A stretch of DNA of 64,000 nucleotides from Candidatus Omnitrophota bacterium (lineage in GTDB: Bacteria > Omnitrophota > Gorgyraeia > Gygaellales > Profunditerraquicolaceae): NCBI GenBank assembly GCA_018825985.1, contig JAHKAP010000024.1:3095-67094 (forward strand). The letters are read 5' to 3'. Numbering within the stretch: the stretch's first letter is position 1; each line of letters starts with the position of its first letter. The translations under genes and the position numbers were made by a program. The notes under the pieces are model-generated. The model did not search any database, had not been told where the DNA came from, and worked only from the letters and a program-made list of their open reading frames with translations. Shown here piece after piece: positions 1,575-25,036 of this stretch.

Positions 1575-2702
1575 ATGAAGAATATGAAAATAATAATCCA
1601 ATTCGAGAAAAAACCGATCTTATTCCAGGACCCGCATTTCATTATCCGCTGTAATCAACCCGCGCAACTTGACAGCTGCTTTACGGATATGGAGGCCGCG
1701 CTTAAAAAAAACTATTACCTGGCAGGTTTTTTATCTTACGAGGCAGGCTATTGTTTTGAAGAAAAACTAAGAGAGAATAAAAACTACGAATTTCCGCTTA
1801 TTTATCTGGGTGCTTACGCTAAGCCGTCTATTTTTAAGCCTTATTTTGATAAATCCCGTCGAAAAGAAAGAATCAGTAACCCCTGCCTTAATATCTCTCG
1901 GGAAAAATATTTTTCCAATATTCATGCTATACGCAGCAGCATAGCAAAAGGCGATGTTTATCAGATAACTTACTGCCTAAAATTATTATTTGAGTTCTCC
2001 GGAGATACTTTCCATCTCTACAATACTCTTTTAAATGAACAACCAGTGCCTTATCCAGCCTACTTAGAAACAAATGAATTCAAGATACTATCCCTTTCTC
2101 CCGAAATGTTTATCAAAAAAACCGGCAGGCGCGTCATTACCAAACCGATGAAAGGAACATGGCAGCGCGGGATAAACCCGGCAAGCGATTTTTGCCGTAG
2201 GATACGCTTCAAGTTTGACAGGAAAAACCGGGCCGAAAATCTGATGATCGCCGACCTTTTAAGAAATGACCTGGGTAGAATAGGAACTGACATACGGGCT
2301 CCCAAACTTTTTGATGTAACCGGATATAAAACTCTTTTTCAGATGACTTCGACTGTTACAGGTAAAATGGATAATAATATTTCTTTGTATGGGCTTTTTA
2401 AGTCCATCTTTCCATCTGGCTCAGTAACAGGAACGCCAAAGATCCGAGCCATGGAGATCATTAAAGAAATCGAGCCTGAAGAACGCAGGATATATACCGG
2501 CGCGATCGGATATATCACTCCTGAAAAAGACCTCTTCTTTAATGTGCCGATCCGGACTCTTTTAATAAAAGATGGGCGCGGAGAAATGGGTATTGGCGGC
2601 GGGATTGTCTGGGATTCTACGCCACTTGGCGAATGGAACGAAGGCCTGCTTAAAGCCAGCTTCCTTACAAAACAAAATCGGGGACAGGTCCCTTTATTCT
2701 AA
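1575..2702 (+). CDS. pabB: chorismate-binding enzyme, aminodeoxychorismate synthase component I-like (short PabB type)
   Basis: chorismate-binding signature region LSPEMFIKK...ITKPMKGT; C-terminal GIGGGIVWDS. Confidence 0.65.
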   Translation: MKNMKIIIQFEKKPILFQDPHFIIRCNQPAQLDSCFTDMEAALKKNYYLAGFLSYEAGYCFEEKLRENKNYEFPLIYLGAYAKPSIFKPYFDKSRRKERISNPCLNISREKYFSNIHAIRSSIAKGDVYQITYCLKLLFEFSGDTFHLYNTLLNEQPVPYPAYLETNEFKILSLSPEMFIKKTGRRVITKPMKGTWQRGINPASDFCRRIRFKFDRKNRAENLMIADLLRNDLGRIGTDIRAPKLFDVTGYKTLFQMTSTVTGKMDNNISLYGLFKSIFPSGSVTGTPKIRAMEIIKEIEPEERRIYTGAIGYITPEKDLFFNVPIRTLLIKDGRGEMGIGGGIVWDSTPLGEWNEGLLKASFLTKQNRGQVPLF

Positions 2703-2977
2703 CTCGTTGTTGGATATAATAGTTAAATTAATGCGCTTTGCACTTTTTACTATTTATCCTATTCTTTAAAAATGCAAACTGATTTTCCAAAACATATTGT
2801 ATTATATGGTATTACAATAAGGGGGCCTGTCCCTCTATGTGCCCCCCCTATGTTGTCAAGTTAACCTTGACCCATTGTCCCGAACAAGTCGGAAACAGTT
2901 TCCCTTGCTAATTGTTGTTGCTTAATTCCTATAATGTGTTATAATGTAAAAGATTATTAAAAGATTAGAAAATCTTA

Positions 2978-3017
2978 AACCGTAAAGGAAGACTACTAAC
3001 TTTTACGGTTTTTTTAT
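2978..3017 (+). terminator. hairpin plus T-run (aaccgtaaa...tttacggtt then ttttttta); intrinsic terminator or attenuator ahead of the DEAD-box helicase unit
   Basis: 9 bp stem 2978-2986/3002-3010, 15 nt loop, T-run 3009-3016. Confidence 0.35.
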
Positions 3018-3027
3018 TGGAGGTAAA

Positions 3028-3189
3028 ATGGGAATCAAAGTTAAAACTTCTTATAAAGGCAGGAGATGTAAGTTCCCTCACTGCAAGCATATCTTAAGTA
3101 TCTACAACCACGAACTTTTTTGCCATATTCACTTAGGCGAGGTTAACTGCAAACAATATCTAAAAAAGGCCAAGAATAATGCCACATAG
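3028..3189 (+). CDS. 53 aa Cys/His-rich small protein (putative zinc-ribbon); overlaps the helicase start
   Basis: ATG 3028 preceded by GGAGGT; translation MGIKVKTSYKGRRCKFPHCKHILSIYNHELFCHIHLGEVNCKQYLKKAKNNAT; stop TAG 3187-3189 overlaps the helicase ATG 3179 out of frame; absent from the ORF track because it is under 60 aa. Confidence 0.35.
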   Translation: MGIKVKTSYKGRRCKFPHCKHILSIYNHELFCHIHLGEVNCKQYLKKAKNNAT

Positions 3190-4426
3190 ATCAATCAACC
3201 CGGATAATCTTGCTCAAGCGCCTAAACAGCCTGTACCGAGCTTTTACGGCATGGGCACAGCGCCTAAGATCCTGGAGATTCTTGAGCGGATTAAATTTAA
3301 AGTACCCACCCCGATCCAGTTAAAAGCCATTCCGATTGCGATCCAGGCTAAAGATATTATTGGGATCGCCCAGACCGGGACCGGGAAAACACACTCTTTC
3401 GCAATTCCTATGGTCCAATTATTAGCCCAGAAAAGCGGCACCGGATTAATTCTGGCTCCAACCCGAGAATTAGCCTTGCAGATCGAACAGGCGTTTCAGG
3501 GCCTGGCCCATCCATTCGGAATGAAAACCGCCTGCCTTATCGGAGGCGCTCCAATGGAAGGACAAACCCAGGCTTTGCATAAAAACCCCAGAATAATAAT
3601 CGCCACTCCCGGAAGGCTGCTTGACCATATGAGCAGGTGGAACGTGATCCCTGATGAAGTAGTAATGCTGGTGCTGGATGAGGCTGACCGGATGCTGGAT
3701 ATGGGATTTGCTCCCGACGTTGAAAAAATCCTTAAATTTATGCCCAAAGATAGACAAACTATGCTTTTTTCCGCCACCATTCCGAAAGAAATCATGGAAA
3801 TGGCTGCTAAACATATGAAACTTCCTATATGTGTGGAGATCGCTCCTTCAGGAACTATGGCCAAAGATATCACCCAGGAATTATTCATCGTAAAAAAAGA
3901 CGCTAAATTAAAAACTCTGGGCAAGCTGCTTACCCAATATCACGGCCCGGTACTTTTATTTTCTAGAACCAAATATAATGCGAAAAAAATAACCCGTTCG
4001 ATCAAAGACATGGGCTATAGCGCGGCTGAGATCCATTCTAACCGCACATTGATCCAGCGCAGAGAAGCCCTGGAAGGATTTAAACGCGGTAAATATAAAG
4101 TGCTGGTAGCTACGGATATCGCTTCCCGAGGTATTGACGTTACAGGGATCGAGTTGGTTATCAACTATGACCTTCCTGAAGACGCCCAGAATTATGTTCA
4201 TCGTATCGGCCGCACCGGAAGAGCCGGGAACAAAGGCCATGCTATCTCTTTTGCTACTCCTGACCAGAGCCGGGATGTCCGGGATATTGAAAAACTGATC
4301 AAAACTACCCTCCCCCTGTCAAAACGCCCCGAGATATCACACGAGAAATATTCTGATTTTTCCCAACAACCCGCAAATAAAAAATCCAGGCCTTTTTTCA
4401 GGTCCAGGCGTCCGCGCCAACATTAA
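3179..4426 (+). CDS. DEAD-box ATP-dependent RNA helicase (RhlE/CshA-like)
   Basis: Q-motif, GTGKTHSF Walker A, DEAD box VLDEADRMLDMGF, SAT, HRIGRTGRAG motif VI; basic C-terminal tail. Confidence 0.9.
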   Translation: MPHRSINPDNLAQAPKQPVPSFYGMGTAPKILEILERIKFKVPTPIQLKAIPIAIQAKDIIGIAQTGTGKTHSFAIPMVQLLAQKSGTGLILAPTRELALQIEQAFQGLAHPFGMKTACLIGGAPMEGQTQALHKNPRIIIATPGRLLDHMSRWNVIPDEVVMLVLDEADRMLDMGFAPDVEKILKFMPKDRQTMLFSATIPKEIMEMAAKHMKLPICVEIAPSGTMAKDITQELFIVKKDAKLKTLGKLLTQYHGPVLLFSRTKYNAKKITRSIKDMGYSAAEIHSNRTLIQRREALEGFKRGKYKVLVATDIASRGIDVTGIELVINYDLPEDAQNYVHRIGRTGRAGNKGHAISFATPDQSRDVRDIEKLIKTTLPLSKRPEISHEKYSDFSQQPANKKSRPFFRSRRPRQH

Positions 4427-12912: not shown

Positions 12913-12941
12913 AAAACCCTTTCTCTTCTTTAGAAATTTAA

Positions 12942-13015
12942 CGCGCCTGGCGTGATTCGAACACGCGACCCTCGGCTTAGAAGGCAGATGCTCTATCCAC
13001 CTGAGCTACAGGCGC
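12942..13015 (-). tRNA. tRNA-Arg (anticodon TCT)
   Basis: Reverse complement gives a cloverleaf GCGCCTG/CAGGCGC acceptor, D-arm GCTC...GAGC, anticodon loop CTTCTAA, T-arm GCGTG-TTCGAAT-CACGC; one T-C mismatch in the anticodon stem; CCA not encoded. Confidence 0.8.
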
Positions 13016-13097
13016 ATTATTCTATTTGTTTCCGCCGTGTGGTGAGCGCAGCCAAACCACAGGCTATCCATCTTATTTCGGGAACATCCCAAAGAAA

Positions 13098-13851: not shown

Positions 13852-13926
13852 TCGGGGCGGACAGATTTGAACTGTCGACCTCTTGCTCCCAAAGCAAGCG
13901 CTCTAGCCAAACTGAGCCACGCCCCG
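13852..13926 (-). tRNA. tRNA-Pro (anticodon TGG)
   Basis: Reverse complement CGGGGCGTGGCTCAGTTTGGCTAGAGCGCTTGCTTTGGGAGCAAGAGGTCGACAGTTCAAATCTGTCCGCCCCGA; C1:G72 pair typical of bacterial tRNA-Pro. Confidence 0.85.
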
Positions 13927-22316: not shown

Positions 22317-22341
22317 GTAGATTTTGGTGGAGGTGGCGGGA

Positions 22342-22977
22342 CACTTATCTACCTGTTTTCCAAGTAGCGTGGACTATCTCTTCGCCCGATAATATACCGG
22401 GAGCCTGGCGTATTATAAGAAGCATAATTTTACCGTTGGTTTAACTCTCTAATCTTAGCCACCAGCTTCATCTTATCACTAAGCATCTTTGGAGTATATT
22501 TACCTGCTCGATGAGTCACAGATTTATACTTTTCTAATATCAAAGTTGCTTGTGGCTTCTTTACGATTAGATATTTAACTATTTCCCCGAGAAAGCATAA
22601 TGCCCTGTCTTGACGAACAGACCATGCAAAAGAATCATTATGTTGAGGTTTGTATTTTTTCTTTGAACAAACTAATCCTCCGCACCTATATTTAATCCAC
22701 TGCAAGAGTTTTAGATTATTATTTGCAATAGAAACATAGGGTATAGGAGTTTCATTCTTATGATGTTTCATAAGCGTTACTGTGCCCTCGCCATCAACAA
22801 TTCCTGCTAAATTAGCTTTCTCAGATTCTTCCAACGGTATCACCTCCTATCTCCTCAATTGAGGAAGTCTCTGCAGGGCTTTCACCCCTCAGGATTACCC
22901 TCGCATTTGCGTTTGGGTTTCCCTGATGTAAGCCAGGTTTTTCATTCCGGATTACTCCGGAAGTCGACCTTAATACT
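22342..22977 (-). mobile_element. group I intron (636 nt) inserted after the U of the tmRNA T-loop, carrying a homing endonuclease ORF
   Basis: Exon 1 ends in U paired to the G of an internal guide GUCGA (P1: UCGAU/GUCGA, 4 WC pairs plus the terminal U-G); intron ends with omega-G (AGAUAAGUG) just before the 3' exon; ~220 nt of core RNA plus a 414 nt ORF. Confidence 0.7.
22430..22843 (-). CDS. LAGLIDADG homing endonuclease (single-motif, 137 aa) encoded within the tmRNA group I intron
   Basis: N-terminal LAGIVDGEG motif (LAGLIDADG family); basic C-terminal half. Confidence 0.8.
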   Translation of the reverse strand: MIPLEESEKANLAGIVDGEGTVTLMKHHKNETPIPYVSIANNNLKLLQWIKYRCGGLVCSKKKYKPQHNDSFAWSVRQDRALCFLGEIVKYLIVKKPQATLILEKYKSVTHRAGKYTPKMLSDKMKLVAKIRELNQR

Positions 22978-23369
22978 GATCGAACCCGCGTCCCTAGATA
23001 ACTGAATAAAAGCCGCTACATGCTTAGCCCCGTATTTTTTGCTTACTACTGCAGCTCCTGCGGGGCAGGATTTGCAGTCCGCGGCCTTTTTGAATCTCGC
23101 TTCGGCCCCAAAGGCTAATTTACCAAAGCCAGCCTGCTTGGGCATCCTTTTACCTCGCAGGCTAAGATAAAAGGATGGCTTCGCTAAATTAGTTAGCGAA
23201 GGCTGGGACCAAACCCATACCCATGGGCATAGCCATAGGCGCTGGTTTAGTAAACGCTATTCTGTTATTTGCGTTTATATTGTGCAAGGATTATTAACGC
23301 GGCCAACCTTGCGTCCGCGGCATGCTGCCGTTACCCTAATCACCTAAGTCGAACCCTTTCACCCCCCTT

Positions 23370-23822
23370 TTATTTTCTTCTGTTCCTGATCGCCCGACGG
23401 ACAGCCAAATCCGTCTCCCGGCGTTTTATATCTTCTCTTTTATCGTAATGTTTCTTGCCCTTAGCCAAAGCCAGTTCAACTTTAACCAAGCCTTTATCAT
23501 TGAAATAAATCTTTAAAGGAACCAGGGTACATCCCCGCTGGATGACCTGGCCCATTAATTTACTAATCTGCTTACGATGAAGCAAGAGCCTGCGCACCCG
23601 GGTTGGCTCAACATTTAAATAACTGGCCTGGGCATAAGGGCTGATATGAAGATTGTATAAAATTACTTCGTTCTTATCGATTCGGGCAAAACTATCTTTG
23701 AGGTTTACCCGGCCATCCCGGGCTGATTTTACTTCGCTCCCCTTTAATTCTATTCCGCACTCCAGGGCCTCCAGAATATCATAATCCCTGAATCCCTCGC
23801 GGTTAGTAGCTATCATTTTCAT
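23370..23822 (-). CDS. smpB: SsrA-binding protein SmpB
   Basis: GIELKGSEVKS, VRRLLLHRKQI, C-terminal basic tail; 150 aa; tmRNA immediately downstream. Confidence 0.9.
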   Translation of the reverse strand: MKMIATNREGFRDYDILEALECGIELKGSEVKSARDGRVNLKDSFARIDKNEVILYNLHISPYAQASYLNVEPTRVRRLLLHRKQISKLMGQVIQRGCTLVPLKIYFNDKGLVKVELALAKGKKHYDKREDIKRRETDLAVRRAIRNRRK

Positions 23823-24892: not shown

Positions 24893-24973
24893 GCGGAAGT
24901 GGCGGAATGGCATACGCGCACGTCTCAGAAGCGTGTGGGGTAACCCTTGAGGGTTCAACTCCCTCCTTCCGCA
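24893..24973 (+). tRNA. tRNA-Leu (anticodon CAG), long variable arm
   Basis: GCGGAAG acceptor, anticodon loop CTCAGAA, variable arm TGGGGTAACCCTTGA, T-arm GGGTTCAACTCCC, 3' CTTCCGC-A. Confidence 0.85.
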
Positions 24974-25036
24974 CTAAATTGTAAGATTAATCTTAACTAA
25001 TTACGTTTATGTGTTAAGAAAATAAAAAACTGTTTT

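Follow-up and report, generated by a model that had tools for sequence, protein, structure and literature searches.

An intron-form tmRNA gene with a LAGLIDADG reading frame in Candidatus Omnitrophota, and the relatives of that frame beside other tmRNA genes

The window analysed here (the whole 64-kb stretch of DNA, from a Candidatus Omnitrophota bacterium) carries a gene for transfer-messenger RNA (tmRNA; gene ssrA) that is interrupted in the T-loop of its tRNA-like part. We read it as an intron-form ssrA: a group I intron would splice out to leave a 405-nucleotide (nt) tmRNA, and the open reading frame (ORF) inside the intron would encode a homing endonuclease of the LAGLIDADG type. We put the probability of this reading at roughly 0.88. 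The boundaries of the exons, a fold that covaries between species, the fold of the protein, the conservation of the element and the association of its ORF family with tmRNA genes are all matters of observation. A preliminary description, made from the letters of the sequence, had placed such a gene next to smpB, and everything it described at 22325-23366 is found there. The features and the adjacency to smpB stand; the strand had to be corrected to minus. Likewise, the intervening sequence is present, and splicing in silico gives it a length of 637 nt, not 636.

A tmRNA gene in two exons

On the minus strand, the gene begins with GGGGGTGAAAGGGTTCGAC... and follows the plan of a tmRNA. Exon 1 holds the 5' acceptor strand GGGGGUG, the tRNA-like 5' domain, pseudoknot PK1 (strands GCATGCCGCGG...GGTTGGCCGCG), the tag frame and pseudoknots PK2-PK4, and colinearity is kept as far as GGGACGCGGGTTCGAT at 22979. 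The exon ends with the 5' half of the T-arm, GCGGGTTCGAT, whose last base is 22979 and which is made of the T-stem strand GCGGG and the T-loop bases UUCGAU. In fact, exon 1 alone is enough for the Rfam tmRNA model RF00023, which matches it on 23359..22977 at 118.7 bits (gathering score 47; E=9e-46), in an alignment from which the 3' half of the T-arm and the acceptor are deleted. The missing parts lie on the other side of the intron. The 17 bases at 22341..22325, TCCCGCCACCTCCACCA, hold the last T-loop base, the T-stem strand CCCGC, the acceptor strand CACCUCC, the discriminator A and CCA. Joined, the two exons restore a T-stem of 5 base pairs (bp), a 7-nt UUCGAUU loop and a 7-bp acceptor, GGGGGUG/CACCUCC, in which G3 stands opposite U, the alanine identity pair.

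ARAGORN finds no tmRNA in the 64-kb window, nor in the unspliced locus. Once 22978..22342 are removed, it calls a complete 405-nt tmRNA with both the 5' and the 3' tRNA domain. The tmRNA identity, for which an Infernal search with RF00023 had been suggested as a check, is thus borne out both by that search and by ARAGORN on the spliced sequence. No second tmRNA was found in the window with either ARAGORN or Rfam. A two-piece (permuted) tmRNA was considered and rejected, RF04321 reaching only 15.3 bits (E=1.3).

The tag frame occupies positions 95-178 of the spliced tmRNA. It starts at the resume codon GCA (Ala) at 23272 and runs for 27 codons to a UAA stop, which lies as TAA in the loop of a 9-bp hairpin (CTTCGCTAA/TTAGCGAAG). 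The encoded peptide, ANNRIAFTKPAPMAMPMGMGLVPAFAN, bears the ARAGORN label 'Tag not identified' and ends in Asn, like those of related Omnitrophota. Tags are unusually long, 26-32 residues, in the spliced tmRNAs of the window and of loci L005, L012, L014, L017, L018 and L028. Met, Pro and Ala abound in Omnitrophota tags, whose last residues are often ...AFAN, ...VFAN or ...LN, as against the common ...LAA.

Fold of the intron and of its product

The intron sits between U6 and U7 of the T-loop, that is at position 7 (UUCGAU/U, the slash marking the splice site). The base that precedes it (22979) is a U paired to a G in P1, and its last base (22342) is a G. The spliced junction is predicted to read GAU/UCCCGC, with ...GGGUUCGAU joined to UCCCGCCACC... 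The helices map to the window as listed in Table 1. A 7-bp stem, P7.2 (AUAGGAG/UUCUUAU), closes the loop that bears the ORF and carries the ribosome-binding site of the ORF in its 5' strand. When the ORF is deleted, an energy-only minimum free energy (MFE) fold of the intron reaches -76 kcal/mol (z=-4.56) and recovers P2, P3, P4, P5, P5a, P6, P7.1, P7.2, P8 and P9. The architecture appears to be IA-like, with P7.1/P7.2 extensions. The site in the T-loop, the U-G pair at the 5' splice site, the terminal G and the conserved fold together support the group I assignment made in the preliminary description.

How conserved is this fold? To see it across species, 22 ORF-deleted sequences, one per species and the window included, were aligned with MAFFT, and the structure was written on the window as 70 pairs in the T-stem, P1-P5, P5a, P6, P7, P7.1, P7.2, P8 and P9. 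Locus L033 was left out because it is a decayed copy, with the 3' strand of P3 gone and the ORF truncated. Over the 70 pairs, 89.3% of the cells are paired, against 38-57% when the partners are slid by 1-3 columns. Changes on both sides occur in 35 of the 70 pairs, and the observed covariation score was reached by none of 500 shuffles. The most telling helices are those that span the ORF. The T-stem is 100% paired in all 22 species, with compensatory changes at three of its five pairs (the variants include GCGGG/CCCGC, GCCGG/CCGGC, GGCGG/CCGCC, CCGGG/CCCGG and GAGGG/CCCUC), and P3 is also 100% paired, with three compensatory pairs. P2 shows compensatory change at all seven of its pairs, P4/P5 is 94.5% paired, P7.2 94.7%, and P6 100% with variation on one side only. 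Pairing lies at 88-100% throughout P3, P4, P5, P6, P7.1 and P7.2, with compensatory changes in P3, P4/P5, P7.1 and P7.2. In 22/22 species a U-G pair marks the 5' splice site; the column of the terminal G is invariant, as are P7 (GACU/AGUC) and the J8/7-P7 segment GAAGAGAUAGUCC.

The ORF can be opened at GTG, which gives the 137 residues of the preliminary description. That frame is present; its start is probably the TTG at 22834, giving 134 residues, because the GTG lies inside GGAGGTG, a Shine-Dalgarno run, and the length annotated for most relatives is 134 residues. The protein carries a single motif, LAGIVDGEG, with Glu19 at the eighth motif position. Across 37 relatives there is no variation at A13, G14, D17, G18, E19 and G20. 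The eighth residue of the motif is, we assume, the catalytic one, and Glu19 would then match the catalytic Asp (D20) of I-CreI. Altogether 164 relatives were found, the nearest being a protein, 99% identical, from an Omnitrophota metagenome-assembled genome (MAG). Many of those that are 63-85% identical have precomputed matches to PF14528 and some to PF00961.

The family can be linked to enzymes of solved structure. A profile built from 37 sequences matches I-MsoI (E=3.2e-6), I-Vdi141I (5.2e-5) and I-AniI (2e-4) in the PDB, as well as the I-CreI family (E=0.06) and 2ab5, an 'mRNA maturase'. The AF2 model of the protein is confident (pLDDT 92.9, pTM 0.84) and consists of an alpha-beta-beta-alpha-beta-beta-alpha core followed by C-terminal helices. 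Compared with the PDB by Foldseek, this model retrieves I-MsoI, I-CreI and I-CvuI at the top, with probability 1.0 and TM scores of 0.72-0.80; there are 99 matches at E<=1e-3, and among the matches listed 50 of 50 are LAGLIDADG enzymes. The proposed single-motif LAGLIDADG ORF therefore holds on the family profile, the model, the Foldseek search and the invariant motif residues, and the homology of its fold, which had been named as a check, is found at both profile and structure level. The gene is under purifying selection: its ratio of nonsynonymous to synonymous substitution rates (dN/dS) is 0.10 against the closest species (synonymous divergence, dS, 0.60), with a median of 0.13 over unsaturated pairs and a range of 0.10-0.15. 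A ratio of ~0.1 supports the earlier view that the endonuclease is intact; that the element is also mobile, we infer.

Table 1. Features of the locus and of the window; the last three rows give, for comparison, a locus with a free-standing endonuclease gene in its own coordinates.
Feature	Position	Strand	Basis or remark
Whole intron-split ssrA	22325-23366	minus
tmRNA exon 1	22979..23366	minus	RF00023; ARAGORN on spliced sequence
Tag reading frame	23189..23272	minus	ARAGORN
tmRNA exon 2	22325..22341	minus	UCCCGCCACCUCCACCA; T-arm restoration
Group I intron, 637 nt	22342..22978	minus	T-arm restoration, covariation, MFE fold
5' ribozyme half	22844..22978	minus	helix coordinates mapped to window
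P1	22983-22978 with guide GGUCGA 22969-22964		UCGAU/C pairs with guide (slash, splice site)
P2	22962-22956 / 22951-22945		GUAA loop
P3 5' strand	22937-22932
P4	22926-22921 / 22894-22889
P5	22918-22915 / 22900-22897
P6	22888-22884 / 22879-22875		GAAA loop
P7 5' strand	22869-22866		GACU
P7.1 hairpin	22865-22852
P7.2 5' strand	22850-22844		AUAGGAG; overlaps Shine-Dalgarno sequence
LAGLIDADG ORF	22430..22843	minus	137 aa from GTG at 22843; in P7.2 loop
3' ribozyme half	22342..22429	minus	second RF00028 partial match
P7.2 3' strand	22421-22415		UUCUUAU
P3 3' strand	22409-22404		GCCAGG
P8	22401-22397 / 22389-22385
J8/7 and P7 3' strand	AGUC at 22375-22372		GAAGAGAUAGUCC
P9	22367-22361 / 22355-22349
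Terminal G	22342
smpB	23370..23822	minus	Pfam PF01668 SmpB, E=8.6e-56, 188 bits
tRNA Arg-TCT	12941-13016		in window
tRNA Pro-TGG	13852-13926		in window
tRNA Leu-CAG	24893-24974		in window
L047 endonuclease	~2500-2914	plus
L047 tmRNA exon 1	3582..3246	minus
L047 tmRNA exon 2	ends 2957

The tmRNA gene lies downstream of smpB, whose product is the protein partner of tmRNA, with only 3 nt between the smpB stop and the 5' end of the tmRNA. Given this short gap, the precursor of ~1042 nt would be transcribed together with smpB or just after it; a scan for promoters and terminators gave nothing decisive for the tmRNA. Loci L001-L004 keep the same order of smpB and tmRNA, and the series exon 1, intron, ORF and exon 2, together with the flanking genes, is identical in four independent assemblies. 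The ORF map, tandem repeats and composition of the rest of the 64-kb window show nothing unusual. From 4.5 kb on, the minus strand carries nearly all the long ORFs, and the GC skew is negative throughout positions 1-64000 (cumulative -4.4), which fits a segment of a single replichore.

Relatives of the endonuclease beside tmRNA genes

The relatives of the ORF turn out to keep company with tmRNA genes almost everywhere. We took them from 79 species-level loci of the genome collection and anchored the pairing of their tmRNA exons on Rfam matches. A match to RF00023 lies within ~1 kb of the relative in 74/79 loci, and some of the remaining 5/79 are at contig ends. About one third of the loci resemble the window: in 23/79, as in the window, a T-arm is broken and the ORF stands between the break and the 3' half of the arm.

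A second arrangement is more frequent. In 45 species (loci L031, L035-L052, L054-L057, L060-L065, L067-L079, L082 and L083) the relative, 35-49% identical to the ORF of the window, stands free, 30-600 nt beyond the 3' end of the tmRNA gene. In these 45 species, the tmRNAs themselves are split by an ORF-less intron of 270-350 nt at the same T-loop position 7, and these introns have the core architecture of the intron of the window. The conserved sequence blocks of the latter are also present in the intron of L030. The free-standing gene is on the same strand as the tmRNA gene in 15/45 loci, mostly from Steroidobacteraceae and other Gammaproteobacteria, and convergent with it in 30/45, mostly from Bacillaceae (Mesobacillus, Neobacillus, Halalkalibacter, Cytobacillus). 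Most of these genes are intact (27/30 and 13/13), and their dN/dS of ~0.17 indicates purifying selection.

In five further loci the tmRNA gene next to the relative is intron-less, with a T-loop other than UUCGAUU. In L024, L025, L080 and L081 these T-loops read UGCAAAU, UGCAACU, AUCGUUC and UUCAAUU, which would fit target variants resistant to cleavage, or just T-loops peculiar to those lineages. The phage search returned distant relatives only. The best of them, in Sphingobium phage Lacusarx (NC_041927.1; locus L085, 2441-3329), is 36% identical, is annotated as an 'HNH endonuclease', and abuts and slightly overlaps the annotated ssrA (tmRNA) of the phage. For the Caulobacter phage relatives (27% identity), no tmRNA adjoins within the 5.4-kb stretch, 2.5 kb on each side.

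Some loci depart from these arrangements. In L059 (~2392-3035) the endonuclease gene lies antisense inside a 643-nt T-loop intron of the tmRNA gene. The endonuclease gene is interrupted or truncated in L028, L029, L033, L040, L048 and L070, decaying copies that occur beside intact ones; L033 has also lost the 3' strand of the intron's P3. In L016, L020 and L023, the endonuclease frame enters the 3' ribozyme core and ends 40-51 nt before the 3' splice site, so that coding sequence overlaps ribozyme helices (P3', P8). An Omnitrophica CG11 MAG (PCWB01000003.1; locus L006, 2350-3060) has the 3' end of its tmRNA directly joined, with a 6-nt T-loop (GGCGG-TTCGAT-CCGCC-CACCTCC-ACCA). This is followed by ~85 nt of unrelated sequence and then by a Shine-Dalgarno sequence and an endonuclease gene 88% identical to that of the window. 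After these comes the intron's 3' half, with P3', P8, P7', P9 and the terminal G, and last a degenerate copy of exon 2, TTCTGCCACCAAAAC. Other sequence takes the place of the intron's 5' half here, through either a real rearrangement or a chimeric MAG.

To account for these arrangements, we tentatively propose, at odds somewhat short of even, a LAGLIDADG lineage dedicated to tmRNA, of which public genomes would show every stage in the birth of a mobile intron. The endonuclease gene would stand free beside an intron-less tmRNA gene with an atypical T-loop (5 species and Lacusarx); it would next lie, on either strand, near a tmRNA gene with an ORF-less intron (45 species); and it would come to lie inside the intron, in the P7.2 loop on the sense strand (about 23 species) or antisense (L059). 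On gene order and homology, the free-standing arrangement looks like collaborative homing, perhaps not yet described for tmRNA. The searchable literature gave us no paper connecting free-standing LAGLIDADG genes with tmRNA genes. This arrangement of the relatives is a more novel result than the element in the window.

Mechanism, alternatives and known systems

From what is known of group I introns and LAGLIDADG homing (reviewed in PMC3984707), the element would work as follows. In the folded 637-nt intron, exogenous guanosine would attack at the U-G pair of P1, and UUCGAU would then be joined to UCCCGC... with the use of the terminal G. Ligation would restore the T-arm, the UUCGAUU loop, the G3-U acceptor stem and the CCA end, and the 405-nt product would act with SmpB in trans-translation. 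The 134-residue protein would form a homodimer, by analogy with I-CreI and I-MsoI, and cut intron-less tmRNA genes in the DNA of the T-arm, at a putative target ...GGGACGCGGGTTCGATTCCCGCCACCTCC... (also written GGGACGCGGGTTCGATTCCCGCCACCTCCACCA). The T-arm DNA is itself an inverted repeat (GCGGG-TTCGATT-CCCGC) and thus suits a symmetric enzyme. The intron would spread as the cut is repaired from the copy that bears it.

Several points weigh against the intron-and-endonuclease reading. The Rfam group I model, RF00028, gives two partial matches, of 22.3 bits on the 5' side of the ORF and 15.9 bits on the 3' side, against a gathering score of 50, so that the Infernal check suggested for the intron falls short of the formal Rfam cut-off. 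Split, sub-threshold matches are expected since a 414-nt ORF divides the core, and the seed of RF00028 has no bacterial members; the shortfall lowers the formal Rfam call, not the structural case. Other weak Rfam matches at the locus (E<=10: flpD, BtsR1, tmRNA_permuted) were judged to be chance or overlap. Similarly, in the suggested Pfam check the single ORF sequence scores 15.8 bits (E=0.018) with LAGLIDADG_3 (PF14528), below the cut-off of 22.5. Invariance deprives P7 of any covariation evidence, and the inner pairs of P8 and P9 are only 49-64% paired and poorly aligned by MAFFT. The latter looks like an alignment problem because both hairpins are seen in the MFE fold and on inspection of single sequences. 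Splicing and cleavage are predictions from the fold and from analogy, and we have counted this as well. Finally, long-term purifying selection on the ORF would suit a maturase, or another role that benefits the host, as well as a homing enzyme.

This last point leads to an alternative, which we consider unlikely: the intron splices, and the ORF is kept as a maturase or for some other host benefit, inherited vertically and not mobile. A dN/dS of ~0.1 among species whose synonymous sites are saturated does speak of long-term selection on the protein, which would not be expected from a simple cycle of homing, fixation and decay. The ribosome-binding site lies within the P7.2 stem, so that translation and folding are coupled, and LAGLIDADG maturases exist, the family profile matching both I-AniI and the 2ab5 'mRNA maturase'. 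Yet the residue at the motif's catalytic position, Glu19, is acidic and invariant, and a KKxQA segment aligns to the same segment of I-MsoI. The relatives span at least six phylum-level labels and one phage, next to tmRNA genes in nearly all their loci, a spread that argues for horizontal movement, and the presence of the intron in Omnitrophota is patchy (18 intron-form against 416 standard genes; PMC11915505). In addition, introns of the same family without a homing endonuclease gene exist, for example in L030, which points to a ribozyme family with no need of a protein in cis.

Could the gene simply be broken? That ARAGORN and standard annotation make no tmRNA call on the unspliced DNA, and that RF00028 stays sub-threshold, is what one would see if an intron-like insertion had turned the tmRNA gene into a pseudogene, with rescue left to another gene or system. 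This seems very improbable to us, given that the T-stem halves, ~640 nt apart, covary perfectly in 22 species, that the tag frame and every tmRNA element are intact, that the intron core is conserved with compensatory changes, and that an intact smpB lies adjacent while the 64-kb window has no other tmRNA. A chimeric contig, in which assembly fused a tmRNA gene to unrelated mobile DNA, might be suspected because the source is evidently a MAG and its closest proteins come from MAGs. The same structure and flanking genes in four independent assemblies, and homologous structures in about 23 species-level genomes, leave this explanation next to no credit. An intron-form ssrA with an endonuclease gene in its intron is thus the reading that we retain.

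What would it mean? The value of the window itself lies mostly in annotation. Standard tools miss its tmRNA (ARAGORN finds none), so such genomes are scored as lacking ssrA, and long ORF-bearing introns are a likely cause of part of the gap in Omnitrophota, where tmRNA is detected in only 72% of genomes (PMC11915505). The element is also a clean, well-conserved example: its ribozyme core is intact, its endonuclease is under purifying selection, and one of its ribozyme stems contains the ribosome-binding site. It is suited to the study of splicing and homing at an RNA gene that is essential and single-copy. Wider importance would come from the endonuclease lineage, whose genes in many cultured Bacillaceae lie outside tmRNA introns that have no ORF. 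If the proposed lineage is real, most of the 'ORF-less' tmRNA introns of Bacillota may be mobilised in trans by a neighbouring endonuclease, and the share of tmRNA introns associated with an endonuclease would be far above the published 4.1%. The pathway from a free-standing endonuclease to a mobile intron would then be testable in tractable bacteria.

The element of the window belongs to a class that has already been catalogued, each testable defining feature of which it matches. The intron form is one of three recognised forms of the tmRNA gene (PMC11915505), a paper that traces it to Williams 2002. That survey, of 2025, counts 883 unique intron-form tmRNAs in 21 phyla, each carrying its intron within the T-loop and most at position 7, and reports LAGLIDADG genes in 36 of them (4.1%). 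The rarity claimed in the preliminary description is therefore outdated. Like the window, members of the class combine the position-7 site with a U-1 paired to G and a terminal G, and 19 of the first 23 cases bearing an endonuclease have it in the P7.1 region (the other four after P9). Omnitrophota are also represented already, with 18 intron-form instances among 600 genomes. The 637-nt intron falls within the published range, no tmRNA intron exceeding 700 bp, and the 1042-nt gene comes close to the longest tmRNA genes known, the second longest of which measures 1116 bp (PMC11915505). What sets the window apart is its ORF, the minority state of the class. The authors of the survey used a tmRNA_intron covariance model of their own, which is not in Rfam, with cut-offs of 150 bits and 500 bp.

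Among proteins, the closest counterparts are I-CreI, I-MsoI and I-CvuI, single-motif homodimers from introns of algal chloroplast 23S rRNA genes. Like the ORF of the window, they have one LAGLIDADG motif, the same predicted fold and a place in a group I intron of a structural RNA gene, and the profile match between I-MsoI and the family of the window runs from end to end, KKxQA segment included. They differ in sequence (17-25% identity), in length (~160-170 residues against 134-137) and at the catalytic motif position, Asp in the I-CreI type and Glu here. The presumed target would also differ, the tmRNA T-arm in place of 23S rDNA, and for the window both the dimer and its cleavage are predicted by analogy. 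As an RNA, the intron recalls the bacterial introns of anticodon loops, which are of the self-splicing type, as predicted here, and inserted directly after a U in a tRNA-like loop of a bacterial chromosome; here the loop is the T-loop, as tmRNA has no anticodon loop.

The relatives, rather than the window, call to mind collaborative (trans) homing, described by Zeng et al. 2009 and by Bonocora & Shub 2009, according to the summary in PMC3984707. There too, a free-standing endonuclease gene lies beside an ORF-less intron at its presumed target. The cases covered in that summary come from phages and involve other endonuclease families, whereas the relatives described here are LAGLIDADG genes beside the tmRNA gene of bacterial chromosomes. 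In the window, the endonuclease gene is already within the intron.

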